The notes below the pieces were generated by a model. That model had not been told where the DNA came from. It searched no databases and was given only the letters and a program-made list of their open reading frames with translations. Positions 17,398 through 64,000 of a DNA stretch of 64,000 bases are shown here, in pieces. Numbering within the stretch: position 1 is the stretch's first letter; every line of letters begins with the position of its first letter. The DNA is from a bacterium (GTDB taxonomy: Bacteria > Sysuimicrobiota > Sysuimicrobiia > Sysuimicrobiales > Humicultoraceae). Both the position numbers and the translations under genes were made by a program. The stretch spans positions 14,731-78,730 of the forward strand of contig JBGQGY010000002.1 in NCBI GenBank assembly GCA_041497675.1, given 5' to 3'.

Positions 17398-19053
17398 TTA
17401 CTTCGCCAGCGCGTACAAGTGGTAGTGCTCGTCCGCGTATTCGGTCTTCCAACCGGCGCAGCCCTCGAGCCCGCCGCCTCTCAGGATGACGTGGGTGACC
17501 CCGTACCCGGAGGATAGCTCCTTGAGGAGGCGGCAACGCTCTTCCGGGGAGGGCTGGACGGGTGTCGGAGCCGGGGCCTGCCGTGGCGCGCGGCCGGTCC
17601 GACGGCCTTCGCGCTGGTAGCGGAAGTCATCCTCCGCGTTCGCCTCGACCTCACCGTAGAACGCCTGCGCCAGGTGCAACCGCTTGTACCATTCCATCAC
17701 CCCGACGTCATCGTAAGGGATGACCGAATGTTCCATAAAAGCCGGGGCACCAGTATAGAGCCGAAACGTGCGCCAGTTCGGCGGAATGAGATAAGTTTGA
17801 CCAGGCACTCCCGTGCGTTTGACGTGCCGCATGACGGTGGGTATCCGCCTCGCGTCCAGGGCAAACCGCGCTCTGGTCTCAAGCACTCCGGCGATGCAGA
17901 ACAATACCAGGACGCCCACGCTCGCCACAACGAGGGCCTGCCCCGCAGCCGCGCCGGTTTCGAGCCGGCTGACCACGAGGGACACGGCGTATCCGAGGAT
18001 GATCAGGGTCGCGAGCGGCACGGTGAAGGCCGACATCCGCCAGGGAAGGAGTGCGGCGAGCGTGTTGTTGTATCGGACGGCCTGCGCCGCCGTCAGCACC
18101 GCCGTGGTGAGAAACGACCCCAGGAGAATCCAGAAAAAATCGGTCTTCCGAACAAGATAGAGGGCAGCCACGATCAGCGCGACCTTGATGTAGACCGCCC
18201 CACCCAGCCATAGCGACGGCACCGAGGGCGGATAGTACGCGACCCGCCAGAGGATATTCTGCGCTTCCTTCCAGAGCGCGGGATTCGTCGGGCCGAACGC
18301 CAGATAGGAATACGCCAGCACCGGCAGGATGAGCACGAACGCCAGGAGACCCAACCCGATTGCCGGCCGTACTCCCTTCCCGCGCCGGATCATGATGGCC
18401 ATGTAGGTGAGTGTGAGCACTGCCGAGCAGAGGACGTAACTGGGTTGGAATATCGATGCGATCGTAGACGTCGTGATGGCCCATACCGGCCGGCCGCGCA
18501 TGAACAGGTAGATCGAGAGCAACAGAAACGCCCCAAAGGTGCCCGGGTTCAGCATGTCCCCCAGGATGCGTTTCTCGCCGATGCCCTCCAGCAACAGGAT
18601 CCGGCCGATGTTGAAGTGGTGCGGTGACGAGGTGAGCGGCAGGCGAAGGCCCATGCGGACGAGGTAGCCAAATACCGGCGAGTGGAGCGCGACCATCAGG
18701 GTCACAAAGATGAGAAACGTCGCGCGCGTGCGGTGGATGGGAACGAGCTGCGAGATGATACCAATCATAGAGAACGCGTAGACGCCAGCCAGCACGAGGA
18801 AGTACAGATACACGAGGCGCAGACTCAGATATCGCTGCGTAAATTCGACCAGCCCGGAGAACACGGGCCACGGATCCGGCGTCTGAGCGAACCAGTCGGC
18901 GCGCAGCAGGCCATAACCCGCCTTGGCCAACCCCTGGAAGAAGTATTGATTCTGCGTGTGATAAAAGAGCGCGTACTGCGCATAGGCGACGGCGAACGCC
19001 GCCGCCGCAAAGAGCACATACGACCGGGGCACCGGCCGTGACACGTCGACCAT
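17398..19053 (-). CDS. Large polytopic membrane protein (about 12 TM helices plus a C-terminal soluble domain), family not recognised, possibly GT-C-like
   Basis: A 551-aa hydrophobic N-terminus is followed by a C-terminal domain of about 130 aa (IPYDDVGVMEWYKR...THVILRGG). It is a paralog of 26980..28620 and shares NQYF, LRxDW and DPxPxFS motifs with it. Confidence 0.6.
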   Translation of the reverse strand: MVDVSRPVPRSYVLFAAAAFAVAYAQYALFYHTQNQYFFQGLAKAGYGLLRADWFAQTPDPWPVFSGLVEFTQRYLSLRLVYLYFLVLAGVYAFSMIGIISQLVPIHRTRATFLIFVTLMVALHSPVFGYLVRMGLRLPLTSSPHHFNIGRILLLEGIGEKRILGDMLNPGTFGAFLLLSIYLFMRGRPVWAITTSTIASIFQPSYVLCSAVLTLTYMAIMIRRGKGVRPAIGLGLLAFVLILPVLAYSYLAFGPTNPALWKEAQNILWRVAYYPPSVPSLWLGGAVYIKVALIVAALYLVRKTDFFWILLGSFLTTAVLTAAQAVRYNNTLAALLPWRMSAFTVPLATLIILGYAVSLVVSRLETGAAAGQALVVASVGVLVLFCIAGVLETRARFALDARRIPTVMRHVKRTGVPGQTYLIPPNWRTFRLYTGAPAFMEHSVIPYDDVGVMEWYKRLHLAQAFYGEVEANAEDDFRYQREGRRTGRAPRQAPAPTPVQPSPEERCRLLKELSSGYGVTHVILRGGGLEGCAGWKTEYADEHYHLYALAK

Positions 19054-19073
19054 GAGATCCTCCTGGCGCGCTG

Positions 19074-20387
19074 TTAGAACGTGATCTCTTGCAGTTCGCG
19101 GAAGCGGCCCGAACGTAATGGTTGCCCGTCACTTGCCTGCGCGAGCTCGCTGAAGTTGTCGCTCCTGGTGGTCACGACGGACACCACGTACATCAGTTCC
19201 TGCTCTATCTGACTCTGGAACTGCACCGCCAGCCTGGCCAAGTCGCTGGCATCGCCGACACCCTGATAGCGTGGCAGCGCGAGCGAACGGGACACCTCCA
19301 GGCGACCCAAGAAGTGACTGGCATATATCGCCTGGTTTCGCGCCGTCTGGCGGGGATTCTTGAACGACCGGTCGATGGCCCACGTGGCCATGAATGCCGA
19401 GTACATGCCCAGTACGACTCCAATCGAGAATATCGGGTCGACAAATGCGGCCGCGTCGCCCGTCAGAAAGAACCCAGGGCCCGAGAGCTGCGCGGGACGA
19501 TAGGAGTAATCGCGGATCATACGCGTGCTGCCCTCACAGAAGGTCGCGTGCTCGAGCAGCCGGTCAAGATACTGTGTCTCATAGCACTTACGCAAGAAGT
19601 ATTCCTCGAGCCCCTTGTCTGTGGCCTTGATACGCTTCAGGTGGTCGATCGGCACCACCAGACCGACACTCGTGCTCTCGCGCAGAGGGATATGCCACGA
19701 CCACCCCCACTCACCCAATTCCCCGACGGATGAGATAAATGTTGTGGGTGGGATCTGGCGGACGTGTTCGAACCCGTGCGCGCGACCGCCCGCGGCGACG
19801 TACTTCGATCCGGTGAAATACCCCCACACGCTCATGAAGCGAAACCCCTCGTCGATCACACGCATGCCGAGCTGTTTGGCGATGACGGCCCCCTGTCCGC
19901 TGGCATCGATCACGAATCGGCAGGCGATCCTGTCCGTTGCCTCGTCATCGGCCGCGCGGTACGCGACCGTGACGCGCTCGCCCCCGTTGAGGTCGACTTT
20001 GGTCGCCGACACGTCCTCAAACACCTGCGCGCCCTGTTCGCGGCTGTGCTCCAGCAGGATCTGGTCGAACCGATCACGCTCGACGTGCAGGGCCGGTCGC
20101 GTGTAGCCGAAGTCGGCGAAAGCGAGCTGTCGAATCACCCCGTGCCAAGCGTGCGTCCCACCGGCTTTCTTGATGAAGTCTTCTTCCTCAATTTTCTTCG
20201 TCGCGCCGAGCATGTCCGTATACTTCCAAAAGTGCGGGATGAGGCTCTCGCCGACGACATAGCGAGGGTGCCGGCGCTTCTCCAGCAGCACAACATCGTA
20301 CCCCTTTTGCCGCAGCAGCGTTGCCGCTGTGCTGCCGGCCGGCCCGCCGCCAATAACAACAACGTCGCACTCTCGCGGTATGCGCAT
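19074..20387 (-). CDS. Flavin-dependent halogenase (tryptophan-halogenase family)
   Basis: It carries an FAD-binding GxGxxG (VVVIGGGPAGSTAA), the family-defining WxWxIP motif (GWSWHIP) and a GDAA...FVDPIFSIG motif. Confidence 0.6.
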   Translation of the reverse strand: MRIPRECDVVVIGGGPAGSTAATLLRQKGYDVVLLEKRRHPRYVVGESLIPHFWKYTDMLGATKKIEEEDFIKKAGGTHAWHGVIRQLAFADFGYTRPALHVERDRFDQILLEHSREQGAQVFEDVSATKVDLNGGERVTVAYRAADDEATDRIACRFVIDASGQGAVIAKQLGMRVIDEGFRFMSVWGYFTGSKYVAAGGRAHGFEHVRQIPPTTFISSVGELGEWGWSWHIPLRESTSVGLVVPIDHLKRIKATDKGLEEYFLRKCYETQYLDRLLEHATFCEGSTRMIRDYSYRPAQLSGPGFFLTGDAAAFVDPIFSIGVVLGMYSAFMATWAIDRSFKNPRQTARNQAIYASHFLGRLEVSRSLALPRYQGVGDASDLARLAVQFQSQIEQELMYVVSVVTTRSDNFSELAQASDGQPLRSGRFRELQEITF

Positions 20388-20432
20388 TGGGAACCCTCTC
20401 GGATTCGTGACGACTGACGTTGACCTTTGCTC

Positions 20433-21386
20433 TTAGTCTTTGATTGAGGACTGAACCCACTTGATGGTGAGGTCGAGGACGTTGTCTTGCACGTCGAGGC
20501 TGGTGAGATTGTTCGGCATGCCCTCGATGGGCGCCAGGGTAATCCGGTCACCGGCCTGATCGAACAGCTCGCGATATGTTCCGGTCTGGAGCTGCACGAA
20601 ATCCCGATACATCGATGACCCGCGGCCGTAGACGAACATCACCGGCACGCCGCGGGACACCAAAGCACGGAGCGAGTCAACCACCGACTTCGAGAGCCAC
20701 TCGGTTTCCGCGCCACCGTTTCTCCGACGCCTGAACAGTTGGCCCGCCGCGAGGTGGAGTTTTCGCATCCACCGTTGGCGGCGGCGCGGGTCGCGCATCC
20801 CCCGCAGGATCCGCGTCCAGGCGCCGTGCCGCGCGGCATTCCGCACGTCGTCCAACGCCCACCGGTTCACGGCCTGCTCGGTCTGGCCGCGCTCGTGGAG
20901 AGGCGGTGAGATCAACGCCACGCCGAGAAGGTTGCGGGCGTGCTGAACGCCCAGCAGCGCGGTCCGAGCCCCGAAGCACCGGCCGATCAGGACGACCTTG
21001 TCGAGCCCGCGCCGGTGAAGTTCCTCGATTGCCCCATGCAGGTCCTGACCGAATGGCTCTTCGTTTGTCGCGAGCGTGATCACGGCGTGCTTGAGCGCGC
21101 TCCCACTCGAGGGCCCGCTGCTTTCACCGAACCCGCGATAGTCAAAACGTAGCACGTGGAATCCCAGCGCGGCGAGGCGCCGGGCCAGACGTGGTTGAAC
21201 GCGGTTTCGGTCCGACGTCGCGTTGAGCAGCACAACACCGATCCCACGAGGGGGCCCCAGGGGCTCCGTCAAGATCCCAAAGGCCCGGTCATCTGCCACC
21301 GGAAACCGCACGGGGATCTCCGTGCGGCTGATCGCTTCGGCCTCAATCAACTGATCGTGCGGTGTTGCCGTGCTCGCGTTCGCCAT
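20433..21386 (-). CDS. Alpha/beta-fold hydrolase
   Basis: The product has an HVLRFDYRGFGESSGP region and a nucleophile-elbow context, and is similar in size and type to 26052..26948. Confidence 0.7.
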   Translation of the reverse strand: MANASTATPHDQLIEAEAISRTEIPVRFPVADDRAFGILTEPLGPPRGIGVVLLNATSDRNRVQPRLARRLAALGFHVLRFDYRGFGESSGPSSGSALKHAVITLATNEEPFGQDLHGAIEELHRRGLDKVVLIGRCFGARTALLGVQHARNLLGVALISPPLHERGQTEQAVNRWALDDVRNAARHGAWTRILRGMRDPRRRQRWMRKLHLAAGQLFRRRRNGGAETEWLSKSVVDSLRALVSRGVPVMFVYGRGSSMYRDFVQLQTGTYRELFDQAGDRITLAPIEGMPNNLTSLDVQDNVLDLTIKWVQSSIKD

Positions 21387-21413
21387 GATGCAGACCCCTC
21401 AAGAGTAGAATGC

Positions 21414-22937
21414 TTACGCCTGCTCCGCCGCACGCCGCCTCGGACTTCGCCGGCCGGGGACCACTTCGCGGATTGCGCGGACCAACCCGCGAATAACCTG
21501 CGGGTCGATCAGCCACAGCGCGGCGGCGTAGGTCACGGCTCCGGCCGCAATCAGGATGATCAACACGACGACTTCGGGCAAGTGGGCATGGCCCTCAAGC
21601 ACCCACATCAGCGTGGCCACAACGGCGGCCATGATCGTGCATCCGATGACCGTCGCGTTCAGGGCGGCCCACACATCCCTAACGGTCATGCCGATCGCCT
21701 GGGACACGTAGCGATAGACGATCGGCATCAACGCGATGGTGGCGACCAGATAGCCTGCGGCGACGCCGATGATTCCCCAATGGAGCCCGACGACGAACGC
21801 CGGCAGGTAGAGGCCGACGGAAAACATGGACAGACGCAGGCGCAGACCCGGCTTGCCGGTGGCCTCCAGCCCTGTCGGCCAGAACGTCGTCAGCAGGCGC
21901 AGGAACCCGGCGATGGTCAGCACCCGGATGACCGGCACAGCCGGCAGCCACTTCGCGCTAAACACCACACTCACGGCCAGCGGGGCGACGAGGGCCAGAC
22001 CGACCAGCATCGGCAACGTCACCATCGTCACATACTGGGTGGCGCGCATGAAAGCGTTTTTGAAACGCACCGCGTCGTCCTGTAGCCTGGACAGGGCTGG
22101 GAAGAACACCCGGTTGAGCAACCCGATGTCGTTGAGCGGCGCCAGAAAGACGGAATAGCCAAACGTGTAGTAGCCCAACGCCGTCGCCCCCAGATACCGG
22201 CCGACGAGCAAGTTGTCCATTTGCCGCACGAAGTAGTCGAACAGGGACGCCCCCTGCAGCCGGCCGCCAAAGGACCAGAGTTCAAGAAACTTCGAACGGA
22301 CAAACACGAACCGCGGCCTCCAGCCGGTAGCGCGCCAGAGCAGAAGGGTCCCGGAGGCGTACATCGTGAGCTCCTGACCGACGAAGCTCCACACGCCCAT
22401 ACCGCGGTACGCCATCGAGATCCCGACCACACCGCCGACCAGCGTCGCCGCCATCGAGCGAAAGGCCAGCAACCGGTAGTCCATGCGCCGGGACACGATG
22501 GCCATCTGCATGGATGCGCCCGAGATGATCAAGAAACTCAGGGACAGCACCGACAGCACGCGACCGACCAGCGGATCGCCAAGCCAGCGCCCGACGAGGA
22601 TGCCTGCGAGGGCGCCGAACGCCGCAAGGATGACGCCGAGCGTCACGCTTGCCCAGAAGCCTGTGGACAGATACTCGTCGTCGATCTCCCGGCGCTGAAT
22701 GATTGCTGAACCCATCCCCATGCTCCCGATGATGCGGAGGAACGTGAGGAAGACCGCGGCCAGCGCAAAGACGCCGTAGTCCTTTGGGAGCAACAGGCGC
22801 GCCAGGACGACCGCAAAGATCTGGTCAACGACCCGGCGCCCGAATTGATCACCGCCGAACCACAGGATCCCACGCATTGTCGCCGCGCGAAGCCGATGCA
22901 ACGGCACGCCGGCGGCGGTGGTTATCTGTTCAGACAT
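21414..22937 (-). CDS. Wzx-type oligosaccharide flippase (MOP/polysaccharide biosynthesis protein family)
   Basis: A 507-aa protein with about 14 TM helices and a conserved N-terminus (VVDQIFAVVLARLLLPKDYGVFALA...GSAIIQR). Confidence 0.75.
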   Translation of the reverse strand: MSEQITTAAGVPLHRLRAATMRGILWFGGDQFGRRVVDQIFAVVLARLLLPKDYGVFALAAVFLTFLRIIGSMGMGSAIIQRREIDDEYLSTGFWASVTLGVILAAFGALAGILVGRWLGDPLVGRVLSVLSLSFLIISGASMQMAIVSRRMDYRLLAFRSMAATLVGGVVGISMAYRGMGVWSFVGQELTMYASGTLLLWRATGWRPRFVFVRSKFLELWSFGGRLQGASLFDYFVRQMDNLLVGRYLGATALGYYTFGYSVFLAPLNDIGLLNRVFFPALSRLQDDAVRFKNAFMRATQYVTMVTLPMLVGLALVAPLAVSVVFSAKWLPAVPVIRVLTIAGFLRLLTTFWPTGLEATGKPGLRLRLSMFSVGLYLPAFVVGLHWGIIGVAAGYLVATIALMPIVYRYVSQAIGMTVRDVWAALNATVIGCTIMAAVVATLMWVLEGHAHLPEVVVLIILIAAGAVTYAAALWLIDPQVIRGLVRAIREVVPGRRSPRRRAAEQA

Positions 22938-22968
22938 TGGTGTAGGTTCTGTCCGGCTGGGAGCTCAA

Positions 22969-23235
22969 TCAGGCGCCCGCGCGGCCGCGGTCGAGCATCT
23001 TCTTGTCGACCAGGCTCGCAATCGACGCAATCGTGCCAAAATTCGCCGGAACGAGTTCCTCGTCGGCTAGCTCGATCCCAAATTGCTGTTCCACGAAGGA
23101 CACGAGCATCAGCAGACCCATGGAGTCGACCACGTGATTCTCGATCAACCCAAATTCGGGCGTCAACGCGCCCTTTGTCTCATCCCAGTGCAGTTCACTC
23201 AAGAGAAAGTTTCTCACCGTCACGGCTGTTGTCAC
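22969..23235 (-). CDS. Acyl carrier protein
   Basis: An 88-aa four-helix protein with a phosphopantetheine-attachment motif (VVDSMGLLMLVSFVEQQFGIEL). An AAGGAGGA Shine-Dalgarno lies 10 nt upstream of the GTG start. Confidence 0.75.
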   Translation of the reverse strand: MTTAVTVRNFLLSELHWDETKGALTPEFGLIENHVVDSMGLLMLVSFVEQQFGIELADEELVPANFGTIASIASLVDKKMLDRGRAGA

Positions 23236-23281
23236 CTAGCTGTCCTCCTTCTGGAAACCCGGCTTTTTGTGGTTCACCAGC

Positions 23282-23298
23282 CCGCACATTATGTGCGG
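23282..23298. repeat. Perfect palindrome CCGCACAT-TA-TGTGCGG that spans the stop codon of the AMP-ligase gene, immediately upstream of the ACP gene
   Basis: Read directly from the sequence. The TAA stop (23289-23291) sits in the loop of an 8-bp-arm hairpin. Confidence 0.4.
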
Positions 23299-24886
23299 TT
23301 GGGGACCGTTGACGCCGGCGCCGCCAGAGCGGTCCGGTCGGTCTTGCCCGTCGACGTCTTGGGTAGGGCCGGCACAAACTCAAAGATCTCCGGCAGCATG
23401 TATCGGGGCAGCAGCCCGGCGCAGAACTTCGTCAGGTCGCCGTCGTCCACGGCCGGGTTGTTCGTCACGACGAAGGCCTTGATCCGACTACCCACCACAT
23501 CGTCCGGGATGGCGATGACGGCGCATTCGGCCACGGCCGGGTGCGCGGAGAGCGCCGACTCGATGTCGCCCAACTCGATGCGGTACCCCCGACTCTTGAT
23601 CTGGTGATCCCGGCGCCCCAGAAAGATGGTGTGGCCGTCCGCACGTCGCCGGACCAGGTCGCCCGTCCGATAGACTCGGCCTTTCATCGGTCCTGACGGA
23701 TTCTGCAGGAACGCCCGGGTCGTGCGCTCCGTATCCCCCCAATAGCCCTGCGCCACCGTGTCGCCCCGCACCTGGAGTTCACCGACCTCCCCGTCGGCCA
23801 TCGGCTGTCCCGACTCGCCGACCACAAACACGTCGACGCCGCCGATGGGCACACCGATAGGAATAGACTCGGTCTGGTCTGCCGGCAAGAGCGGTACCGG
23901 GTAATACGTGCAGACGTTGGTCTCCGTCGGCCCATAGAGGTTGGTGAACACCGCGTGCGGTACCAACCCCATCAGCGCCCGCAGGTGTTTGGTCGGGAAC
24001 ACCTCACCCGCAAAGATCAGGTGCCGGAGCGTGCGCAACCGCCCAACGGTCAGGTTGCCGCGCAGCACCAGAAGCGTCAGCACGGAGGGTACCGAGTACC
24101 ACATCGTGATGCCGCGGTCCTCGATGAACCTGGCCAGCTGCACCGGAAAGACCGAGATCTCGGGAGGGACGATGGCCAGGGCCGCTCCGGCCATCGCCGC
24201 CGCGAAGATATCGAGGATCGTCAGATCGAAGTGCAGCGGCGCATGATTCGAGAACACGTCCTCGGGCGTCCCGCCAAAGTAATCATGACACCACCCAACA
24301 AACGCCAGCGCGTTTCGGTGCGACAGCATCACGCCCTTCGGTTGTCCCGTCGATCCCGACGTGTACAGGATATAGGCCAGGTCGCCGCTGCTGCCCTCGA
24401 CGGTGTGCGCGGCGGTCGGCGCGGCTTCCAGCGCATCGGTCCCCAGGCACCGTACGCCTTCCGGTGTAGCGCCTTCGTCACCTCGGGCGTCCAGGACGAC
24501 CAGGTGCTGGAGCGGGGCACCCGCGCCTACGAGCCCGCTCCACTCTCGAGATTTCTCCCGATGCGTCACCAGGCAGCGGACTCCACAGTCGCGGGTAATA
24601 TACCCCAGACGCTGGGCCGGGGCGGCCGGGTCCAGCGGTACATAGGCGGCACCGGCCTTGAGGATGCCGTAGATGCCCACGATGGCCTCGTTACATTTGT
24701 TCAAGAAGAGGCCGACGCGATCGCCCGGGCGGATTCCGGCTTCGCGCAGCGCAAACGCCAGTTGATCGGCGCGACGGTCGAGCTGCGCGTACGTCATGAC
24801 CCCGCGTGTATCCCGCAGCGCAATGCGACCCGGGAATCGGTTCGCGGCCTCCGCAACGAGGTGGGGCAACAGCACCGCGTTCACAG
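23289..24886 (-). CDS. AMP-dependent synthetase/ligase (adenylate-forming acyl or aminoacyl ligase)
   Basis: It has the adenylation core motifs (YTSGSTGQPKGV, YGPTE) and a TGD...K region. The start is trimmed to a GTG that overlaps the acyl-CoA dehydrogenase stop as GTGA; the track ORF begins 54 codons upstream. Confidence 0.85.
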
Positions 24887-26026: not shown

Positions 26027-26051
26027 CGACGCAAACGCTCCATGTCCTGCA

Positions 26052-55526: not shown

Positions 55527-55973
55527 TCACCGGGTGATTTCAACGAGCGCAACCCCGGCACTCACCTGTTCCCCGTCTTGTCTGACCGCCCATATCTCCG
55601 CTTCAACGGTTCTCGCCCCATCCTGAGTCGTCCTCACATCACGGATGCACCCGGCGCACCGCACGGTATCGCCGGGACGTATCAGACCCGTGTGCCGGAC
55701 AGACAGGCGGCGGACCCATCCACTCGGTCCAACCCAACTGGTGATCATTCGCACCAACAGCGCAGTACGATGGTTCCCGCTTTGGACGACGTCAGATTGG
55801 TCCATGTACTCCAGGGCGTATGCGCGATCGTAGTGCAGCCGAATCCAGTTCTCCTGGTACCCGGCCCACCGCACGAAATCGGTCAGCGAAAGCGGGCCGA
55901 TCTCGAGGCCTGGGATTTCGGCTCCAGCGACGGGTGTGGGTGCTTGCTGTGCTCGCATGACGGGGCCGCCCAT
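55527..55973 (-). CDS. Hotdog-fold (MaoC-like) dehydratase subunit
   Basis: Hotdog-fold core (IRPGDTVRCAGCIRDV). ATG 55973 overlaps the CoA-transferase stop (TGATG); the track ORF starts 53 codons upstream. Confidence 0.55.
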   Translation of the reverse strand: MGGPVMRAQQAPTPVAGAEIPGLEIGPLSLTDFVRWAGYQENWIRLHYDRAYALEYMDQSDVVQSGNHRTALLVRMITSWVGPSGWVRRLSVRHTGLIRPGDTVRCAGCIRDVRTTQDGARTVEAEIWAVRQDGEQVSAGVALVEITR

Positions 55974-57121: not shown

Positions 57122-57669
57122 CACACGCCCAGCGTTCGCGCCGTCGTCTGGTGCACGACCGCCACCGGCTGCCCGCTCTGATCCGAGTAGCGGCGCTCTT
57201 CCGTGATAAACACGGCAGCACCCGTCCGCCCGTCTTTCAGCGCGATGTCCGTGATCTTGAACCTGACGGTGAGCCAGTCGCCGATGCGTAATGGCCGAAT
57301 CCACTCGATGTCGGTTGCGGCATTAAGCCGCCCGCGTTCGCCCGGGACCACGATGGTAGCCGCCAACCCACCCAAAGATGGAAACTCACGTTCGCCCCGG
57401 TTGTCGATAACATCCCGGCCGGGCTCGGGCCGCAAAATGTCGAGGATCATGGCGGGTGGCGCGAGGGCTCCCACGCGGCTCGGGTTGGATTCTGGATCGA
57501 CCGCGCCCCACAGCGGATTGCCGTCGCCGGCCGCGTTCACATAGCGGCGCACGTCGCTCCACTCGATGGGTCCCGGCGCCCGCACGGGTTCACTCTCATG
57601 CCCGATCCACCGCCGCAGGGCGTTGAGAATGTCTGCTGGTGTCTGCGAGACTGGTCCCATAGCCGACAC
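57121..57669 (-). CDS. Hotdog-fold (MaoC N-terminal-like) dehydratase subunit
   Basis: A 182-aa hotdog fold (WIRPLRIGDWLTVRFKITDI). Its GTG start overlaps the upstream TAG. Confidence 0.65.
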   Translation of the reverse strand: MSAMGPVSQTPADILNALRRWIGHESEPVRAPGPIEWSDVRRYVNAAGDGNPLWGAVDPESNPSRVGALAPPAMILDILRPEPGRDVIDNRGEREFPSLGGLAATIVVPGERGRLNAATDIEWIRPLRIGDWLTVRFKITDIALKDGRTGAAVFITEERRYSDQSGQPVAVVHQTTARTLGV

Positions 57670-58874
57670 TACTGAAGCGCGCCGGAAGCCTTCAAACCGG
57701 CAATCTCCGCGTCGCTCATCCCAACCACCTGACGCAGGACCTCATCGGTGTGCTGGCCCAACAGCGGGCCCGCGTGGTCGAGCCTGGCCGGCACGCCCTC
57801 AATGTGTATTGGGTTGGAGAGCATGGGCATCTCGCCAATCGCCGGATGAGTGATGACCTGTGTCAACGGTGCATACGTCGCAAGATCGGCCAAGGCCCCC
57901 ACGTTGGTGCGGACCGCCGCGGCCGGCACCCCTGCAACCTGGAACACGCGTTCCACCATACGGGCGTCTCGCCCGAGGGTCCAGGTCTCCAGCCGGCGAT
58001 CGATGTCTTCTGCCGCGGCGCGCCGGCCTTCCAGCGTCTGATAGCGCGCGTCGTCGAGCACGCCGTCCCCCACGATCCGCACCAGCGCCTCCCACTCCGT
58101 AGCGCTGCCGACGCTAATCACACACCATTCGTCGTCTCCCGCGCAGCGATAACATCCCTGCGGCACGCGGTGCGCCGATCGGTTGCTCTGACGCGCCGGC
58201 CCGCCGTTGCCTTGCGCCTCTGCCATTAACGCTCCCAATGGCAGTGCATTCGACTCGTACTGGCTCAGATCGATCCAGCAGCCCTCACCGGTGTGATCGC
58301 GCCGCTCTAAGGCCGCGGTGACAATGACCGCGGCGTGCAGCCCCGCCATGAAGTCCGCCCACGAGTTCGAGACACCGATCGGCGGATCACCCGCGCGGCC
58401 GGTGGCCAGCATCAATCCCGACAGCGCTTGGATCACAGCGTTGAAGCTCACCCACTGCGCGCACGGGCCGGTATGCCCCAACCCCGCCATGCTCACGTAG
58501 ATCAGCTGGGGATTGCGCGCGCGCAGGCGATCCGGCCCAAGCCCCAGTCGCTCCATGACCCCTACACTGAAGTTCTCAGTCAGGACATCACACTGCTGGG
58601 CCAAAGCGATCGCGACCTCGGCTCCCTGAGGATGCTTGAGGTTGATGGCGACCGAACGCTTGTTGCGGTTCAAACTGGCGAAGAGCGTGCTCCCTTCCTG
58701 CTCGCGCGGGCCGTCCGGTTTGAAGGGGCCCAACCGCCGCCCTCCCTCTACCGCCGTCGCGCTCTCAACCTTGATGACGTCCGCGCCGAAGTCCGCGAGG
58801 AGTCCCGTGGCAAACGGGCCGGTGACCACGTGCCCGAAGTCCAGGATGCGGATGTGCTCGAGCGGTCGGATCAT
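57669..58874 (-). CDS. Family III CoA-transferase (CaiB/BaiF), second subunit or paralog
   Basis: It has the motifs IRILDFGHVVTGPFATGLLADFGADVIKVE and LGPDRLRARNPQLIYVSMAGLG, and the gene overlaps the DUF35 gene (58871..59314) by 4 nt. Confidence 0.9.
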   Translation of the reverse strand: MIRPLEHIRILDFGHVVTGPFATGLLADFGADVIKVESATAVEGGRRLGPFKPDGPREQEGSTLFASLNRNKRSVAINLKHPQGAEVAIALAQQCDVLTENFSVGVMERLGLGPDRLRARNPQLIYVSMAGLGHTGPCAQWVSFNAVIQALSGLMLATGRAGDPPIGVSNSWADFMAGLHAAVIVTAALERRDHTGEGCWIDLSQYESNALPLGALMAEAQGNGGPARQSNRSAHRVPQGCYRCAGDDEWCVISVGSATEWEALVRIVGDGVLDDARYQTLEGRRAAAEDIDRRLETWTLGRDARMVERVFQVAGVPAAAVRTNVGALADLATYAPLTQVITHPAIGEMPMLSNPIHIEGVPARLDHAGPLLGQHTDEVLRQVVGMSDAEIAGLKASGALQ

Positions 58875-59314
58875 GCGTCCCGCGACGACACGACACTCGG
58901 GATCGGTTCAAACAACGGCAGCGCGTACTGCTCGGTGATCGACCGGACCACCACACGTACCGGCAGGCCGATGTGCACCGATTCCGGCGGGCAGTTCACG
59001 ACATTGCTAACCATCATCGGCCCTTCGTCGAGTTCAATCGCGGCATACACATACGGCACAGGAAACGCCGGCGAGTGCTGCACGCGCTGCACCGTGAAGG
59101 TGAAGACCTTGCCCTGGCCGCTGGCCCGCGTCCACATGAGGTTTTCAAGATATGGATCATTCGAGTGTTCACGGCACCCCGCCGGAGGCCACCGCCAGGT
59201 CCCGCAGCGACGACAGCGAAGGAGCAGAAACTCGCCGCGCCGCAACCCCTCCCAGAACGGTCTCATCTCCTCGGTTGGGTTGGGGACGGCTCCCTGCCAC
59301 GCGACGGTGCTCAT
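58871..59314 (-). CDS. DUF35 Zn-ribbon/OB-fold protein (scaffold partner of SCP-x-type thiolases)
   Basis: It has a four-Cys zinc ribbon (CRRCGTWRWPPAGC) and an OB fold. ATG 59314 overlaps the thiolase stop (ATGA). Confidence 0.7.
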   Translation of the reverse strand: MSTVAWQGAVPNPTEEMRPFWEGLRRGEFLLLRCRRCGTWRWPPAGCREHSNDPYLENLMWTRASGQGKVFTFTVQRVQHSPAFPVPYVYAAIELDEGPMMVSNVVNCPPESVHIGLPVRVVVRSITEQYALPLFEPIPSVVSSRDA

Positions 59315-60519
59315 GCTGCGTGGCCCCGCGGGTGTTTCGTCAGAACGATCGTGGAGTGAATCGAGCACATCTGGCCCGAGAGGACCTCCGCGCCGTGCCC
59401 GGATACCAGCGCGACGTCCGCATCGGGCACCTGCCGCGCGCCACCCTCACCTTGCACCTGGATGATCGCCTCGGCAAAGCCCGTCAGGTTGCCCAAATGG
59501 TGCGATGAGAGCAGCCCGCCACCGGTGTTGACCGGCACCTCGCCGCCCGGCCCGGTCCGCATTTCCGCGGCAAACGCCCCGCCTTCACCCTTCCGGCACC
59601 ACCCATAGTCTTCCAGCTGAATGATGACTTCACCGGTGAAGCAGTCGTAGAGTTGCGCGACATCCACATCCGCCACGCTGATGCCGGCCTGGCGGAACGC
59701 GGCGTCGCGCGACGTGCGCACCGCCAGCGTCGTGTAGTTGGTCCGCTCCCACCAGAGGTCGCTCATCTGCTCGCCGAAGCCGATCCCCGCGACGTAGACG
59801 GGTGCGTTCCGCGCATCTCGCGCGCGGTCGGTCGTCGTAACGACAAACGCCGTCCCGCCATCGCTCTGCAGGCAGATATCGAACAACCGGTACGGCCAGA
59901 CGACCACCGGGGATTGCTGATGCTCGTTGAGTGTCAGAGGCCGGCCGTGCATGTAGGCCCGCGGGTTTCGGTTTGCCCACTGCCGCGTGGCCACGGCCAC
60001 AGCGCCGAGCTGCTCGCTCGTCGTCCCAAACTCGTGCATGTGCCGGCTGGCCAGCAGACCGTGATAGGATGCTGCATTCGCACCAAACAACGGGGCAACC
60101 GCGTTGGCCTTCGGCGCATACGCCTGCCCGCGCTTCCCCGACACCTGCTGGGCCGCCTGTGCGCGGCTCCAGTCGTCCCGTGCGCCCGCGCACACGACAT
60201 AGTCGGCGATACCATGATCCAACAACCCGGCCGCGGCAATCAAAGCGTGTGCGGCGTATTCACCGCCGCGTCCAACATTTTCCATGTACAGGTTGACGGG
60301 CAGGTTCAGCACCCTGGCAAACGAGTCGTGATGCCTGGGACGGATCCCGCCCCCCGTGTCGCTCAACATCTGGATCGCGGCGCCGATATCTGTCGCCTGC
60401 AGGCCGGCGTCATCGATCGCCAGACGGGCAGCCTCGACCTCGAGCATCAGCACCGATCGCCCCGGCAGGTGTCCAACGTCGGTCACGCCGAGCCCGATCA
60501 CCGCGTACCGGCCTGTCAT
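59311..60519 (-). CDS. Thiolase-like / SCP-x-type (non-specific lipid-transfer protein) thiolase or aldolase
   Basis: A 402-aa protein with the thiolase fold and an N-terminal YAVIGLGVTDVG region. It is co-encoded with the DUF35 partner. Confidence 0.85.
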   Translation of the reverse strand: MTGRYAVIGLGVTDVGHLPGRSVLMLEVEAARLAIDDAGLQATDIGAAIQMLSDTGGGIRPRHHDSFARVLNLPVNLYMENVGRGGEYAAHALIAAAGLLDHGIADYVVCAGARDDWSRAQAAQQVSGKRGQAYAPKANAVAPLFGANAASYHGLLASRHMHEFGTTSEQLGAVAVATRQWANRNPRAYMHGRPLTLNEHQQSPVVVWPYRLFDICLQSDGGTAFVVTTTDRARDARNAPVYVAGIGFGEQMSDLWWERTNYTTLAVRTSRDAAFRQAGISVADVDVAQLYDCFTGEVIIQLEDYGWCRKGEGGAFAAEMRTGPGGEVPVNTGGGLLSSHHLGNLTGFAEAIIQVQGEGGARQVPDADVALVSGHGAEVLSGQMCSIHSTIVLTKHPRGHAA

Positions 60520-61409
60520 CCTCTGATGAATGATTCAGGCGGCTTTGGGCCCCACAGGTTCACCGCAGCAGATCGTCCGCTTACAGGATCCCAGACACCA
60601 GGCCGGTAGGTCTGCTCGTCTGGAATGTGCGCGGCCTCAGCCTGGAGTTCCCACCGGATTCCCCAAGGATCGACGAAGTACACGAAGATGCTGTGTCCGG
60701 GGCCGTGACGGCCCGGGCCGAACTCAACGGAGACGCCGTGCGCCTCGAAATGATTGAGCATTCGTAGGACATCGTCCCATGACTCGATCTCGAAGCCAAT
60801 GTGATGCACTCCTTTGGTCGCCGATTGCACCAGCGCGATGGTCGCGTGCTCGCTGGTGCACCGCACCCAGGAAAACTGCCCCGGGATCTGATCGGACAGA
60901 CGAAAGTCCATAAACTGCTGCCACCATTGCGCACTCGCGCCGGCATCAGCAGCCTTCACGTTGATGTGCGAGAGCTTGATCAGGTTCGCCGGCGGAGTGC
61001 CGGCAGGCCGCGCGACGGGCGCCTGAGACGCGACCAGTTCGCACAGATAGCCGTCGGGATCCTGCAGGCGCACTGCCGGACCGTGCAGCGGCTCGAACAC
61101 CGCGGGGCCGTCGATGCTCAGCCCGCGGCGGCGGAGTTCCACCGCGGCGGCGGCCAGTGCGGACGCATCGGGTACCGTCAATCCGTAGTGATCAAGGCGA
61201 GTGGACTCCCCCGGATACAACACGAGTTCATGGTGCGCAACCATCGGGGCCCCGGTGGGCAGCGTGCTCATCACAATCGCGCCCGTCGCTCGATCGTCCC
61301 GGGTGATACCCAGACCGAGGACCCGCGCATAGTAGGCCGCTGTCGCCCGAGGATCCGGGACGCGCAGGGTGACGTGATCGAATCCGCTTACCGGCAGTCG
61401 CTCGGACAT
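60516..61409 (-). CDS. Two-domain VOC-family protein (glyoxalase / extradiol-dioxygenase fold)
   Basis: It has two VOC modules (GFDHVTLRV...; LSHINVK...HHIGFEIES). The start is trimmed to MSERLPV. Confidence 0.65.
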   Translation of the reverse strand: MSERLPVSGFDHVTLRVPDPRATAAYYARVLGLGITRDDRATGAIVMSTLPTGAPMVAHHELVLYPGESTRLDHYGLTVPDASALAAAAVELRRRGLSIDGPAVFEPLHGPAVRLQDPDGYLCELVASQAPVARPAGTPPANLIKLSHINVKAADAGASAQWWQQFMDFRLSDQIPGQFSWVRCTSEHATIALVQSATKGVHHIGFEIESWDDVLRMLNHFEAHGVSVEFGPGRHGPGHSIFVYFVDPWGIRWELQAEAAHIPDEQTYRPGVWDPVSGRSAAVNLWGPKPPESFIRG

Positions 61410-61447
61410 CGCCACACCTCTCTGTGCCTTCCGTTGACCCGCACGTG

Positions 61448-62353
61448 TCACTGAACCGGGCCACTTCCGGGACTCACTCTGGAACTGGCTCCGGCGGCGC
61501 CGCGCACCCCGCCGTTCTCGGAAGATGCGCTGCCGGCGCCGAGGAGGGCCTTGGTGGCCCGAAACAGCCAGAACCCATCGGTGCGCAAAACGGGGTATCG
61601 CCACAGCCGAGAGAGATCAAGGTCAAGGTACGCGTTCTTTCCCGGACCGCCCAGCGTCACCGTCGAGTACCGTGCAGCCACGAGCCGCTCCGTCTCCGGC
61701 GACCACCAGCCCCAAGGGTACGCAAAGTGTCTCGGCGCAGCGCCCAGCCGTTGTTCGATGAGTTGGTCGCATTCCTCGAGCTCGCGCATGGCGTCGTCCG
61801 CCCCGACCCGCGAGAGGTCGGCATGCGTGGCGGTGTGGCCGCCGAACGTGATGAGACCGGAGTGCATCATGCTCGCAGCCATCTCCCATGTCATCGGCTT
61901 TGGTCGCTGCTCCACAGGGGATTGCCGGAACCCCCCAAAATCAAACGGGCATTGTGTCTCGACGTACCTCGCCGGGAGATACACCGTTGCCGGGAGCTCG
62001 AACCGCCGCAGGACCGGGTAGGCGAACTCATACGTATCGCGGTACCCGTCATCGAACGTGATCGCGACGACGTCGCGGTTCGCATGCCGAGCCGCGCGGC
62101 GGGTGGCAATCTGGGCCACTTCATCGAGCGAGACGACCAAGCAGTTCCGCCGCAAGTAACGCATCTGTCGTTCGAACACGCTCACACCGAGGTCGACATC
62201 GCTTCGAGTCCCGCCACCAATCCGGTGGTAGAGCAACACCACCACGCCGGGCCGCCGCTCGTGTTGCCAGATCCGGAACGGCAGCATGCTCCACCGTACG
62301 AGGCTGCGCGCGACGCGCCCTTGCCCACGTATCCAGGCGCCGAGTCCGTCCAT
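61448..62353 (-). CDS. Polysaccharide deacetylase (CE4, NodB-homology domain), second copy
   Basis: It has the NodB motifs (VVAITFDDGYRDTYEF; FGGHTATHADL). The start is trimmed to about 62353. Confidence 0.75.
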   Translation of the reverse strand: MDGLGAWIRGQGRVARSLVRWSMLPFRIWQHERRPGVVVLLYHRIGGGTRSDVDLGVSVFERQMRYLRRNCLVVSLDEVAQIATRRAARHANRDVVAITFDDGYRDTYEFAYPVLRRFELPATVYLPARYVETQCPFDFGGFRQSPVEQRPKPMTWEMAASMMHSGLITFGGHTATHADLSRVGADDAMRELEECDQLIEQRLGAAPRHFAYPWGWWSPETERLVAARYSTVTLGGPGKNAYLDLDLSRLWRYPVLRTDGFWLFRATKALLGAGSASSENGGVRGAAGASSRVSPGSGPVQ

Positions 62354-62361
62354 CGTCGTGT

Positions 62362-63405
62362 CTAAAAGACCTCGAGATCGCCGAGGGCGAGACGCCACGA
62401 TGCGAAGGACGTCGGGTCGAAGCCTAGGTCATCGGCCAGAGGCCTGATGGTAAGGTGCGGACCGCCGGGCAGTGGCAGAAATCCTGTTCGAAGGAGGACT
62501 CGCCGGTGCGGGGTGTTCCACGCACAGTGGGCGACGGCGTAATCCGCGCGGGTCAGCCCGAGCAGTTCGCGGACGACGCGTTGCCCGTGGCGCTCATCGG
62601 CCATCAACAGCTCGCACACCATCAGTTCCGACAGCCCGCGCCGATGTGTCAGCCGAAAGATCACAGCCGCTTGGGGTCGCCCGGCCCCGACCCAATGGGC
62701 GCCATACTGCAACGAGGGCACTTGGGCGTACCGCCACCGAAGAAACGTCGTCGATCGCGCGGTCCGGACACCGTCAGCCAAGTGCACATCGTCACGAGCC
62801 AGCAGGTCCGTCACACCGGGCTCGTTCTGTAGCATGTCGTCGACGGAGCGCCACCGGCCGAGCGTGTCCTGTTCACCGTCGCCGGTTCCGTTCCTGGCCC
62901 CGCGCCACCGCGAGCCAAGCACGGACCGGACCATGCGAAAGGCGTGCAGCGGTCGAACGAATACCAGCGCCCGCCCCACGTGGGTCCACCCCAGCTTGAG
63001 ATATCCGGGCATGCTGTACCGGTTTGGCGTGTTGAACACGAGATGCACCCCGGTCGCCCGCGCGCGTTCAAGACAGGCCGCTGTCAGGTTGGAGAAGATT
63101 CCCATTCGCTGGTATTGCGGGTGTGTCGCGGTGTCCACGGCTCGGACACCAAGAACCGTCTGCCCCCGCGCGCGAAACTGCCAGCGCAGGAAGGCGCGCA
63201 ACCCCACGATCCGGTCATCGTCGGCCAGCAGCATCAGGGATTGGCCAAACGGGTTGTCTCGATGCTTCCAACGGAAGAACGCCGTCGAGCGCTCGAACGC
63301 CCGCCCGCTGCCCAACGTGAGATTGAGCAATCCCAGGACCGGCGCCTCGTCTGCGGGCTCGTATTCACGGATGGTAAAACGCGGTTTGACCGTCGCCACC
63401 GTCAC
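62362..63405 (-). CDS. GNAT-like acyltransferase (large GNAT/FemAB-like fold)
   Basis: It has a GNAT core (HPQYQRMGIFSNLTAACLERARATGVHLVFNTP). Its start overlaps the upstream GT4 stop (ATGA). Confidence 0.55.
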   Translation of the reverse strand: MTVATVKPRFTIREYEPADEAPVLGLLNLTLGSGRAFERSTAFFRWKHRDNPFGQSLMLLADDDRIVGLRAFLRWQFRARGQTVLGVRAVDTATHPQYQRMGIFSNLTAACLERARATGVHLVFNTPNRYSMPGYLKLGWTHVGRALVFVRPLHAFRMVRSVLGSRWRGARNGTGDGEQDTLGRWRSVDDMLQNEPGVTDLLARDDVHLADGVRTARSTTFLRWRYAQVPSLQYGAHWVGAGRPQAAVIFRLTHRRGLSELMVCELLMADERHGQRVVRELLGLTRADYAVAHCAWNTPHRRVLLRTGFLPLPGGPHLTIRPLADDLGFDPTSFASWRLALGDLEVF

Positions 63406-64000
63406 GCCCGTCCACCCTGCAGCAGCCCTGAGTACAACTGCTCTATCGTGCGAACCATCTGGGGAACACCGTAACGGGCCTGAGACTTGGCGCGCGCCGC
63501 GGCGCCCATGCGCCCCCGAAGGTCGGGCGAGGCCAGCAGCCTACCGATTCCGTCGGCAAGCGCCCCTGCATCCTGAGAAGGCACCAGCACGCTGCTGGTC
63601 TCGTCGGTCGCTTCGGGCACACCGCCAACCCGGGTGACGACGCTGGGCTTGCCCAGGGCCATCGCCTCAAGCAGCGCGATCGGCAGACCTTCGTGCAGCG
63701 ACGACAGGACAAACACGTCAGCGGCTGCCACCAGCCGCACCGCGTCGGGTCTGAACCCCGTGAAGACAAAGCGTCCCTCGAGTCCGTGTCTGCCCGCTTC
63801 CGCCTTCAGCGCCTCGGCCAACGGCCCCAGACCGACCAGCAGGAAGCGCGCGGCTGGATACTGCGTCAGCACCTGGGCCGCCGCGGCCAGGAGGTACGTG
63901 TGCCCCTTCTTCGGCGTCATGTTGCCGACGGTTGCCACTACCGGCGCATCGGACGCGAACCCAAACTCCCGTCGGACGGCGTCGCGCTCCACGGGCATGG
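63402..64000 (-). CDS. Family 4 glycosyltransferase, C-terminal portion only (the N-terminus lies beyond the window end)
   Basis: It has the GT4 C-terminal motif (FVLSSLHEGLPIALLEAMALGKPSVVT). The track M at 63998 is internal, and the frame stays open to the window edge. Confidence 0.7.
   Translation of the reverse strand, partial: MPVERDAVRREFGFASDAPVVATVGNMTPKKGHTYLLAAAAQVLTQYPAARFLLVGLGPLAEALKAEAGRHGLEGRFVFTGFRPDAVRLVAAADVFVLSSLHEGLPIALLEAMALGKPSVVTRVGGVPEATDETSSVLVPSQDAGALADGIGRLLASPDLRGRMGAAARAKSQARYGVPQMVRTIEQLYSGLLQGGRA

Follow-up and report, generated by a model that had tools for sequence, protein, structure and literature searches.

We analysed a window of 64,000 nucleotides (nt) of DNA (contig JBGQGY010000002.1 of assembly GCA_041497675.1, positions 14,731 to 78,730 of the forward strand) from a bacterium that GTDB places in the family Humicultoraceae of the Sysuimicrobiota. 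Between positions 17398 and 64000, the minus strand of this window carries an unbroken series of 43 genes, most of which belong to families that build, flip and modify lipid-linked glycans. Inside this series lies a cassette (19074–26948) of a kind otherwise familiar from natural-product pathways: a stand-alone proline adenylation enzyme, a small carrier protein, a prolyl-carrier dehydrogenase, a flavin-dependent halogenase and two α/β hydrolases, together with a flippase of its own. A first-pass annotation, made from the letters of the sequence alone, had described the series as a tightly packed array for a hyper-decorated glycoconjugate; it had overlooked the proline-to-pyrrole nature of the acyl branch as well as a 6-kb block of coenzyme A (CoA)-related genes. 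We refer to the genes as g01 to g42, as in Table 1.

Since the window is GC-rich (GC 0.61–0.67), raw lists of open reading frames (ORFs) are noisy. The gene set was defined by the frame bias of GC at third codon positions (GC3), by Pfam and NCBIfam matches, and by the genes annotated on public contigs that are identical to the window or nearly so, with which the gene starts were chosen to agree. The resulting 43 genes, a number that takes in a 59-amino-acid DUF5989 gene and the 88-amino-acid carrier gene, agree with the more than 40 consecutive minus-strand genes and tight gaps that the first-pass annotation had reported. Among the 42 junctions, 13 have 4-nt overlaps (ATGA, GTGA or TTGA) and two have 1-nt overlaps (TAATG or TGATG); gaps are 50 nt or less at 38 of the 42 and 0–10 nt at nine, the four larger ones measuring 53, 63, 77 and 87 nt. 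Coding sequence makes up 98.6% of the array. The earlier figure of about 18 start/stop overlaps was slightly high, although the overlaps themselves are real: 15 are firm, and alternative starts raise the number to 16–17 at most. The junction of g30 and g31 is uncertain, with an overlap of 44 nt (52707–52750) when the start used in a relative is adopted and a gap of 55 nt when g30 starts at 52651. Long operons in GC-rich bacteria usually look like this, with closely spaced genes on one strand and 4-nt overlaps, and the packing of this array, which is real, is unremarkable in itself. A scan for promoter and terminator consensus sequences over 14800–34000 gave no excess over shuffled sequence and speaks neither for nor against a single transcript.

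The lower boundary of the array is genuine, as the stop codon of g01 at 17398 faces a convergent pair of plus-strand genes whose last position is 17383. The array's other limit is set by the window edge only. A public contig that is 99.94% identical to window positions 55611–64000 (L156) extends the series by at least three further genes of the same strand; its first 2792 nt correspond to positions 64001–66792 and contain the remainder of g42 (a GT4 glycosyltransferase of 376 amino acids in full) and another GT4 gene. A 127-nt gap separates these from the gene of a larger protein whose C-terminal part, the portion covered, has Big_7 and CarboxypepD_reg domains. This larger protein is related to the G8/CEMIP β-helix proteins of two other loci described below (L068 and L153). 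The locus is at least 49 kb in size.

In window order, the cassette consists of the halogenase g02, the hydrolase g03, the Wzx-type flippase g04, the carrier g05, the adenylation enzyme g06, the dehydrogenase g07 and the hydrolase g08. The best match of g06 among stand-alone enzymes in the PDB is the prolyl ligase PltF (6o6e; 2.5e-98, 333 bits). In PheA numbering, the positions of the specificity code are D235, A236 (FDxS), W239, T278 (three residues before the proline of VPS), I299, A301 (LIxAGE), A322 (NxYGPTE), I330, C331 (after GPTExx) and K517, and at the corresponding columns g06 reads DLLYIALVCK. When the adenylation enzymes encoded beside g07 homologues were aligned, they read DLLYLALVCK in 18 loci and DLFYLALVCK in 9. 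As these 27 dehydrogenase-adjacent enzymes spell the proline consensus exactly, we regard the column mapping as validated. Stand-alone L-proline adenylation enzymes have the consensus L(L/F)YLALVC and modular ones VQ(Y/F)IAHVV (PMC3874040); g06 is one conservative residue off the former. At the level of its sequence, g06 therefore has the character of a stand-alone L-proline adenylation enzyme.

The carrier gene g05 occupies what appeared to be a gap of 352 bp. Its product has the phosphopantetheine-attachment Ser expected of a stand-alone carrier, and its PDB matches are stand-alone peptidyl carrier proteins (PCPs), among them the prolyl carriers PigG (9.5e-7) and CcbZ. The dehydrogenase gene g07, which overlaps g06 by 4 nt, scores 466 bits against the PigA model (cut-off 500) and 420 bits against the RedW model (cut-off 650), the next family reaching 331 bits. 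Because the cassette enzymes g02, g05, g06 and g07 have neither a signal peptide nor a transmembrane segment, we place the cassette chemistry in the cytoplasm. These features, taken together, predict that a pyrrolyl-S-carrier is likely to be made.

The halogenase g02 has PDB matches to CmlS (1e-48), CndH, RadH, PltA (5e-36), 5buk (7e-34) and 5bva (2e-27), the last two of which we take to be Mpy16 and Bmp2. The sequence elements expected of a flavin-dependent halogenase are all found in it: the GxGxxG motif for flavin adenine dinucleotide as GGGPAG, the WxWxIP motif as GWSWHIP, and a catalytic Lys, in DFIKKAGG, that aligns with YVKKPS of CmlS. The FxDPxFSxG motif is present as FVDPIFSIG. We put the prediction that g02 halogenates the tethered pyrrole at even odds or slightly better.

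To the two α/β hydrolases of the window we aligned their orthologues from five related loci. The nucleophile elbow of g03 is GRCFG, with Cys137 as the nucleophile, and a G-x-C-x-G-A-R sequence with Cys is kept in six of six orthologues; g03 also has no transmembrane segment. At the equivalent position of g08, Arg is found in six of six orthologues, and as Arg always stands there we presume that g08 is a non-catalytic partner of g03. Cys-type α/β hydrolases act as acyl shuttles in the cases of SyrC and CmaE, and the Cys nucleophile of g03 would suit the transfer of an acyl group from a thioester to an acceptor, making g03 a candidate acyltransferase. Such a transfer is known from CloN7/CouN7, an acyltransferase that shifts pyrrole-2-carboxyl from a carrier protein to the 3′-OH of a deoxysugar (PMC11218499, PMC8748450).

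We examined the genomic contexts in which related cassettes occur. Metagenomes contain over 120 clusters of the g07 dehydrogenase family that reach at least 65% identity. All the other contexts that we examined of g07 homologues at approximately 67% identity or more were polysaccharide loci (L001, L007, L067, L068, L069, L151, L152 and L153), and they included both Wzx and ABC-transporter types. L001, from an Armatimonadota metagenome-assembled genome (MAG), L007 and L067 have the gene set of the window's cassette in rearranged form. L068 has genes for Wza, Wzc, NusG, a G8/CEMIP β-helix protein, UDP-glucose dehydrogenase and CE4 as well as for a sulfatase, Wzx, GT2 and a carbamoyltransferase, and L152 has a halogenase, DegT, a PglF-like gene and GT4 genes. 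In L069, L151 (from an Actinomycetota MAG) and L153, which are of the ABC-transporter type, GT4, CE4 and sulfotransferase genes occur together with the hydrolase pair, which is clearest in L069 and L153. The upstream parts of L068 and L153 encode Wza, Wzz and NusG along with a protein resembling tyrosine kinases. In L001, L007 and L152, the halogenase gene adjoins the set of carrier, adenylation enzyme and dehydrogenase. L067, in which the cassette is related at 85% identity, has a nonribosomal peptide synthetase (NRPS)-like gene for an adenylation–PCP–thioesterase protein (18574–21146) following DUF6798a; this gene is absent from the window.

Synteny in relatives, which the first-pass annotation had proposed as a check on the array, was found in a very close relative, in which a 651-kb contig keeps the gene order of the window for 30 kb or more, most genes being 91–99% identical. 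Compared with window positions 32168–52750, this relative (L154) shows mosaic divergence, with identities of 74% for g19, 75% for the GNAT g26, 79% for g13, 82% for g14 and 86% for g20, a pattern that looks like serotype-type diversification or recombination.

The same relative (L155; ENA ERZ25039478, contig_27199) has a different cassette at the site of the window's cassette. Its positions 11573–20308 correspond to 19074–26948 of the window, between flanks that are 95–99% identical, and the flank beyond the swap is 98.7% identical. Downstream of DUF6798b, the hydrolase/dehydrogenase/proline-adenylation block is replaced by genes for a fatty-acyl-AMP-ligase-like protein, an Rv2949c/chorismate-lyase-like protein, a PaaK-like aryl ligase and a carrier of 101 amino acids. 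Next come a halogenase (73% identical), an hydr2-like hydrolase (57%), an hydr1-like hydrolase (47%) and Wzx (87%), and DUF6798a is absent. On account of this swap, we regard the carrier, the halogenase, the two hydrolases and Wzx as a constant core and the acid-activating genes as exchangeable. The pattern fits a glycan substituent that varies between strains far better than it fits a stand-alone small-molecule pathway. In the same contig, the first GDSL gene was called as two pieces (2388–3562; 274 and 123 amino acids) and is probably frameshifted.

The remaining genes of the array (Table 1) bear out, at the level of Pfam and NCBIfam families, most of what the first-pass annotation had read from the sequence: the PglF/PglE/GNAT/PglC-like precursor route; a GT2 and three GT4 enzymes, with a fourth GT4 just beyond the window end; two Wzx flippases, which are Polysacc_synt_3 proteins (1.6e-77 and 5.4e-76); carbamoylation, by Carbam_trans_N (3.5e-78) and Carbam_trans_C (5.2e-65) of g16; two CE4 and two SGNH proteins; and GNAT and FemAB-like acylation, by matches to Acetyltransf_1, Acetyltransf_6 and Acetyltransf_9. 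These GNAT-type families, represented by three GNATs and one FemAB-like Acetyltransf_6 protein, are the only acetyltransferase families matched across the array. The acyl carrier protein (ACP)-dependent acyl branch and the halogenase were also found, and are specifically the proline-to-pyrrole module described above. Other parts of the annotation needed correction. Its two methylation genes come down to one inside the array (28614–29390), the second (14154–14849) lying outside it, beyond the convergent genes. Its adenylating enzymes include one clear amino acid adenylation enzyme, and the two further proteins, the paralogues g18 and g31, are only remotely PaaK-like. The two GT-C transferases that it had named are present as PMT_2 enzymes, and the total of GT-C-fold proteins is five, not two. 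Its Wzy-like polymerase was not substantiated, as the sole candidate (41164–42504) has no Pfam match and a GT-C-like model. "Hyper-decorated" is a fair description, and a structurally novel glycan stays a prediction.

Table 1. Genes and gene groups of the array and of its lower flank (window positions).
Feature	Position	Strand	Basis and remarks
Two convergent secreted-protein genes, overlapping	14967–17383	+	No Pfam family
g01, GT-C-fold membrane glycosyltransferase, final array gene	17398–19053	−	Pfam DUF6798; about 10 transmembrane segments; paralogue of g09
g02, flavin-dependent halogenase	19074–20387	−	Trp_halogenase 6.6e-29; NCBIfam CmlS model 1e-64
g03 (abH1), α/β hydrolase with Cys nucleophile	20433–21386	−	Pfam Abhydrolase; NCBIfam hydr1_PEP 56 bits, under cut-off
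g04, Wzx-type flippase A, within cassette	21414–22937	−	Polysacc_synt_3 1.6e-77; MOP flippase 230 bits
g05, stand-alone carrier protein, 88 amino acids	22969–23235	−	Ser motif VDSMG; NCBIfam ACP models; called on public contigs
g06, stand-alone L-proline adenylation enzyme	23289–24884	−	TIGR01733 409.7 bits (cut-off 317)
g07, L-prolyl-carrier-protein dehydrogenase, acyl-CoA dehydrogenase fold	24881–26026	−	NCBIfam PigA/RedW
g08 (abH2), α/β hydrolase without nucleophile	26052–26948	−	Hydrolase_4; NCBIfam hydr2_PEP 112 bits, under cut-off
g09, GT-C-fold membrane glycosyltransferase (DUF6798)	26980–28617	−	AlphaFold model and Foldseek
g10, S-adenosylmethionine methyltransferase	28614–29390	−	Methyltransf_11 1e-19; 4-nt overlap with g09
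g11, GT2 resembling polyprenyl-phosphate sugar synthases	29392–30189	−	Glycos_transf_2 3.7e-31
g12, PMT_2 GT-C transferase	30267–31934	−	Pfam PMT_2
DUF5989 gene, 59 amino acids, between g12 and g13	31961–32140	−	Pfam DUF5989 1.5e-14; called on public contigs
g13, PMT_2 GT-C transferase	32168–33853	−	Pfam PMT_2
g14 and g15, two GDSL/SGNH proteins	33857–36223	−	Lipase_GDSL_2; hydrophobic N-terminal segment (membrane anchor) in each
g16, O-carbamoyltransferase (NodU/CmcH type), and g17, small SxtJ-like membrane protein	36251–38250	−	Pfam
g18, soluble paralogue of g31	38338–39912	−	56% identity to g31; no Pfam match
g19, FemAB-like GNAT (Acetyltransf_6)	39953–41167	−	Pfam 5.6e-32
g20, GT-C-like membrane protein, about 10 transmembrane segments	41164–42504	−	No Pfam match; predicted model
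g21 (201-amino-acid protein) and g22 (DUF218 protein)	42545–43734	−	Both 94–96% identical in relative L154
Core precursor/initiation block	43741–52750	−	PglF-like dehydratase, CE4, GT4, GNAT, Wzx B, DegT aminotransferase, PglC-like, GNAT
PglF-like dehydratase (membrane-anchored Polysacc_synt_2)	43741–45654	−	Pfam/NCBIfam
DegT/PglE-like aminotransferase	50240–51424	−	Pfam/NCBIfam
PglC-like phosphoglycosyltransferase, 230 amino acids, one transmembrane segment	51421–52113	−	Bac_transf 1.9e-49
g31, PaaK-like paralogue, and g32, GT4	52707–55522	−	g31, Pfam AMP-binding only 0.0029; g32, GT4 matches
CoA block, 6 kb	55527–61409	−	MaoC hot-dog, CoA-transferase III, FAS1_DH hot-dog, CoA-transferase III, DUF35 OB-fold, SCP-x-type thiolase and two-domain VOC/extradiol-dioxygenase-like proteins
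g40, CE4; g41, GNAT (Acetyltransf_9); g42, GT4	61448–64000	−	Pfam; g42 truncated by window end

The precursor and initiation block is collinear in L154 and holds the one initiating phosphoglycosyltransferase of the window. The GT2 enzyme g11 matched the ArnC, PpgS and AglJ models weakly, in all cases under the cut-off. The carbamoyltransferase gene g16 overlaps by 1 nt the SxtJ-like g17 (2.9e-5), and g17 and the DUF5989 gene may go with the carbamoyltransferase; calling the DUF5989 gene shortens the upstream GT-C protein to 555 amino acids. A remote PDB match of g18 to the PaaK-like ligase 6siw (2.8e-4) makes it a possible PaaK-like adenylate-forming enzyme.

The array encodes five GT-C-fold membrane proteins (g01, g09, g12, g13 and g20). 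The paralogues g01 and g09 are 36% identical. For g09, an AlphaFold model built on a 49-sequence alignment reached a pLDDT (predicted local distance difference test) of 93 and a pTM (predicted template modelling score) of 0.90, and its best PDB matches by Foldseek were DPY19, AftA, STT3/PglB and ArnT (E values of 4e-6 to 1.5e-3) and EmbB. D84 and D91 are invariant across the same alignment, so that g09 combines the multi-span fold of the GT-C class with acidic residues in the first extracytoplasmic loop. We also considered the DUF6798 proteins as acyltransferases of the MBOAT/DltB kind and rejected this assignment, as the high-confidence model has a GT-C glycosyltransferase fold. In one homologue of g09 (P0132), a methyltransferase and DUF6798 are naturally fused, paralleling the overlapping g10/g09 pair.

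The fifth protein, g20, had no Pfam match even at E values of up to 5, and 85 homologues of it were detected. Its model (pLDDT 82) matched ALG9, PglB and ArnT in Foldseek, with TM-scores of about 0.4–0.49 for most, and WaaL was absent among the 50 matches listed. No scanned window protein matched Wzy_C; g20 is the sole polymerase candidate.

The cassette resembles the known type II pathways in which a carrier-bound prolyl group is converted to a pyrrolyl group, namely PltF/PltL/PltE with PltA, CloN4/N5/N3 with CloN2/CloN7, PigI/PigG/PigA and RedM/RedO/RedW. Common to them and to the window are a stand-alone adenylation enzyme with a proline code, a stand-alone carrier, an acyl-CoA-dehydrogenase-like dehydrogenase, a flavin halogenase, and a step of acyl transfer, putative in the window, of the α/β-hydrolase type. 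CloN4/N5/N3 produce pyrrole-2-carboxyl (PMC11218499, PMC8748450), and clorobiocin and coumermycin finally carry the pyrrolyl group as an ester on a sugar. The differences are that the window's module sits inside an undecaprenyl-linked polysaccharide locus rather than in a polyketide synthase, NRPS or aminocoumarin cluster, that its putative transferase has a Cys nucleophile and a nucleophile-less paralogue, that its dehydrogenase falls just below the PigA and RedW cut-offs, and that its halogenase is not specifically PltA-like. The sequence-level features of the Plt and Clo systems are thus present, with the exception of the curated score for the dehydrogenase.

A second likeness is to the cassette associated with exosortase A (XrtA/PEP-CTERM; TIGR03098, TIGR03100 and TIGR03101), with which the window shares the combination of an AMP-forming ligase, a small carrier and two α/β hydrolases in an exopolysaccharide locus. 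The best NCBIfam matches of g03 and g08 are "hydrolase 1" and "hydrolase 2, exosortase A system-associated", respectively, the second-best match of g06 is the ligase of that cassette, and the GT4 genes of the window also match the XrtA-associated stp2 model. Unlike the XrtA cassette, the window adds a prolyl dehydrogenase and a halogenase, and its scores lie far under the cut-offs (TIGR03098, 320 of 592; TIGR03100, 56 of 168; TIGR03101, 112 of 203). As these scores are too low, we place the window's cassette outside the XrtA-associated families. No exosortase or PEP-CTERM protein was seen in the window, and no exosortase family was matched among its scanned proteins. To our knowledge, the XrtA cassette has no experimentally defined function; a search of the open-access literature returned nothing relevant on its characterisation, which as an absence is weak evidence.

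The glycan genes recall the bacillosamine route of Campylobacter and Neisseria and the Wzx-dependent O-antigen and capsule loci, with which they share a Polysacc_synt_2 dehydratase, DegT, a Bac_transf protein with one transmembrane segment, Wzx and GT4. In place of the Pgl N-acylation step, the window has GNAT- and FemAB-type enzymes; no left-handed β-helix acetyltransferase of the PglD type was matched in the array, and for this reason we do not regard the pathway as a canonical Pgl pathway. Unlike Wzx/Wzy loci, the window has no recognisable Wzy_C, Wzz or Wza, it has five GT-C enzymes, and it is far larger. The proposed loading of a small carrier by an adenylation enzyme for the acylation of a surface polymer is reminiscent of D-alanylation by DltA–DltD, and membrane-anchored SGNH proteins are common to both. 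In the window, however, the multi-span candidates have the Wzx or GT-C fold, the substrate would be proline oxidised to pyrrole, and the transferase candidates are cytoplasmic α/β hydrolases. Since no MBOAT protein (DltB) is present, this is not a Dlt system.

We favour the interpretation, with a probability of roughly 0.55, that the array is a single locus for a lipid-linked, Wzx-flipped surface glycan with an embedded, carrier-dependent cassette for a probably halogenated pyrrole-2-carboxyl decoration. It draws on the assignment of the proteins to families, the specificity code for proline, the motifs of the halogenase, the Cys that all g03 orthologues keep, the repeated occurrence of such cassettes in polysaccharide loci and the exchange of the cassette in L155. 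From these we infer that the product is a pyrrole and that it is halogenated, as well as what accepts it and in which order and compartment the steps take place. That the array is a glycan locus is very probable. That the cassette is part of the glycan pathway is argued by the Wzx gene inside it, the GT-C genes flanking it and the translational coupling of some of its genes, by its recurrence in polysaccharide loci and by the L155 swap; for the acyl group to end up on the glycan, we see the odds as balanced or leaning slightly in favour.

In the pathway that we envisage, the PglF/DegT-type route would yield a sugar of the 4-amino-4,6-dideoxy-hexosamine type, the PglC-like transferase would begin assembly on undecaprenyl phosphate, and GT4 enzymes would lengthen the chain in the cytoplasm. 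In parallel, g06 would adenylate L-proline and load it onto g05, g07 would oxidise prolyl-S-carrier to pyrrole-2-carboxyl-S-carrier, and g02 would probably halogenate the carrier-tethered pyrrole. The acyl group would then be moved by g03, partnered by g08, to a hydroxyl or amine of a sugar in the cytoplasmic lipid-linked intermediate, which the cassette's own flippase g04 would turn to the other side of the membrane. Outside the cytoplasm, the five GT-C enzymes, fed by the polyprenyl-phosphate-sugar synthase g11, would assemble or branch the glycan. Further tailoring would include carbamoylation, methylation, de-N-acetylation by CE4 followed by re-acylation through GNAT and FemAB-type enzymes, possibly with acids activated by g18 and g31, and O-acyl handling by the SGNH proteins.

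Several observations weigh against this interpretation. The dehydrogenase scores under both curated equivalog cut-offs, that of PigA included (466 vs 500), and the halogenase is nearer to CmlS, CndH and RadH than it is to PltA, 5buk and 5bva, the halogenases of pyrrolyl carriers; a flavin reductase was not identified. Among the related loci, no carrier-protein gene was detected within 10 kb in L068, L069 and L151–L153, and L068 and L152 do not show the hydrolase pair. The window yielded no Wzy, Wzz or Wza, so that the product may be an oligosaccharide rather than a polymer; the sequence upstream of the window was covered for 2.8 kb. None of the roles that we considered for the CoA block was convincing. 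Finally, the organism is uncultured, and the cassette product is a prediction.

The two flippases and the five GT-C-fold enzymes could also serve at least two separate glycoconjugates, one being a main repeat unit made by PglC and Wzx B and the other a second lipid-linked glycan or glycolipid made by Wzx A, GT2 and GT-C enzymes, to which alone the acyl cassette would belong. The mosaic divergence and the cassette swap in the relative suggest modular evolution, and the four gaps of 53–87 nt could house internal promoters. The window, however, shows only one initiating phosphoglycosyltransferase, the 30 kb examined are all collinear in the relative, and there is neither a strand switch nor an excess of terminators; we consider two glycoconjugates unlikely. 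Distinctly unlikely, in our judgement, is the juxtaposition of two unrelated systems, an ordinary polysaccharide locus and an inserted small-molecule cluster for a free or elaborated halogenated pyrrole of the pyoluteorin or pyrrolomycin kind. Proline-to-pyrrole modules are classic natural-product machinery, the homologues of g07 at 62% identity or less, from other phyla, mostly lie without glycan markers and in many cases near ORFs of more than 1500 amino acids, and in L067 an adenylation–PCP–thioesterase gene adjoins the cassette. Against these points, the window has no condensation, ketosynthase or other acceptor enzyme and its cassette is interleaved with Wzx and GT-C genes; moreover, the close homologues examined are all in polysaccharide loci, of several architectures, and the swapped cassette of L155 retains Wzx and the hydrolase pair.

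The acceptor of the acyl group is itself putative, and a protein or a lipid anchor might take its place, by analogy with the acylation of lipids or proteins, the glycan genes being mere neighbours. A PglF/PglE/PglC-type route serves protein glycosylation too, and the alternative cassette of L155 contains a fatty-acyl-AMP-ligase-like enzyme. Yet the cassette brings no candidate acceptor protein or lipid-synthesis gene with it, and Wzx, GT and CE4 genes are its constant partners across loci, which makes this alternative very unlikely.

A broader proposal, which we offer tentatively and at odds somewhat short of even, is that uncultured bacteria, among them relatives of Armatimonadota MAGs as well as at least one MAG from Actinomycetota, place halogenated aromatic acyl groups on their surface polysaccharides by means of swappable acid-activating genes and a pair of a Cys hydrolase and a nucleophile-less partner that installs the group. 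The group would be a (chloro)pyrrole-2-carboxyl here and a different aryl or fatty acid in the near-identical relative, amounting to serotype-like diversification between strains, which would vary their glycan by exchanging acid-activating genes inside otherwise identical loci. Natural-product carrier-protein chemistry would thereby be linked to the tailoring of cell-envelope glycans, and surface polysaccharides could bear halogenated heteroaromatic esters or amides, of which we found no report in the searchable literature. Likewise, our search of the open-access literature returned no report of pyrrole-carboxylate- or halogenase-decorated polysaccharides, an absence that is weak evidence. The proposal would also suggest a role for the ligase/carrier/two-hydrolase cassettes that NCBI family models tie to exopolysaccharide loci, and would make the Cys-type α/β-hydrolase acyltransferase and its pseudo-enzyme a previously unrecognised pair. 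Because the dehydrogenase family is large in metagenomes, such chemistry could be widespread in soil and sediment biofilms, and genome-mining tools would at present mistake these loci for small gene clusters that make halopyrroles.

The CoA block is translationally coupled to the flanking GT4, CE4 and GNAT genes. Its gene order, with those flanking genes that are covered, is the same on five other contigs (L150, L156–L158; 99.2–99.9% nucleotide identity), which probably represent this population or one very close to it. Its VOC/extradiol-dioxygenase-like protein scores 115 bits against a cut-off of 320. When the CoA-transferase g36 was compared with metagenome contigs, only generic homologues of up to 37% identity were among the matches listed, which is uninformative about synteny of the block. 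The composition of the block is, we presume, like that of acyl-CoA processing of the ChsH1/ChsH2/Ltp2 or Bbs type. It is only a guess that the block supplies an unusual acyl-CoA, (R)-3-hydroxyacyl or unsaturated, to the GNAT and FemAB-like enzymes; it may also be a passenger catabolic operon.

The two convergent secreted-protein genes below the array are kept beside related loci, with identities by tblastn of 66–70% in L001, 85–88% in L007, 49–52% in L068 and 98.7% in L155, and the pair may be accessory to the locus. Farther downstream, positions 2448–14849 of the minus strand encode a spermidine-synthase-like protein, a heat-shock set of ClpB, DnaJ, GrpE, DnaK and Hsp20, two LuxR-type response regulators, a histidine kinase and a methyltransferase.

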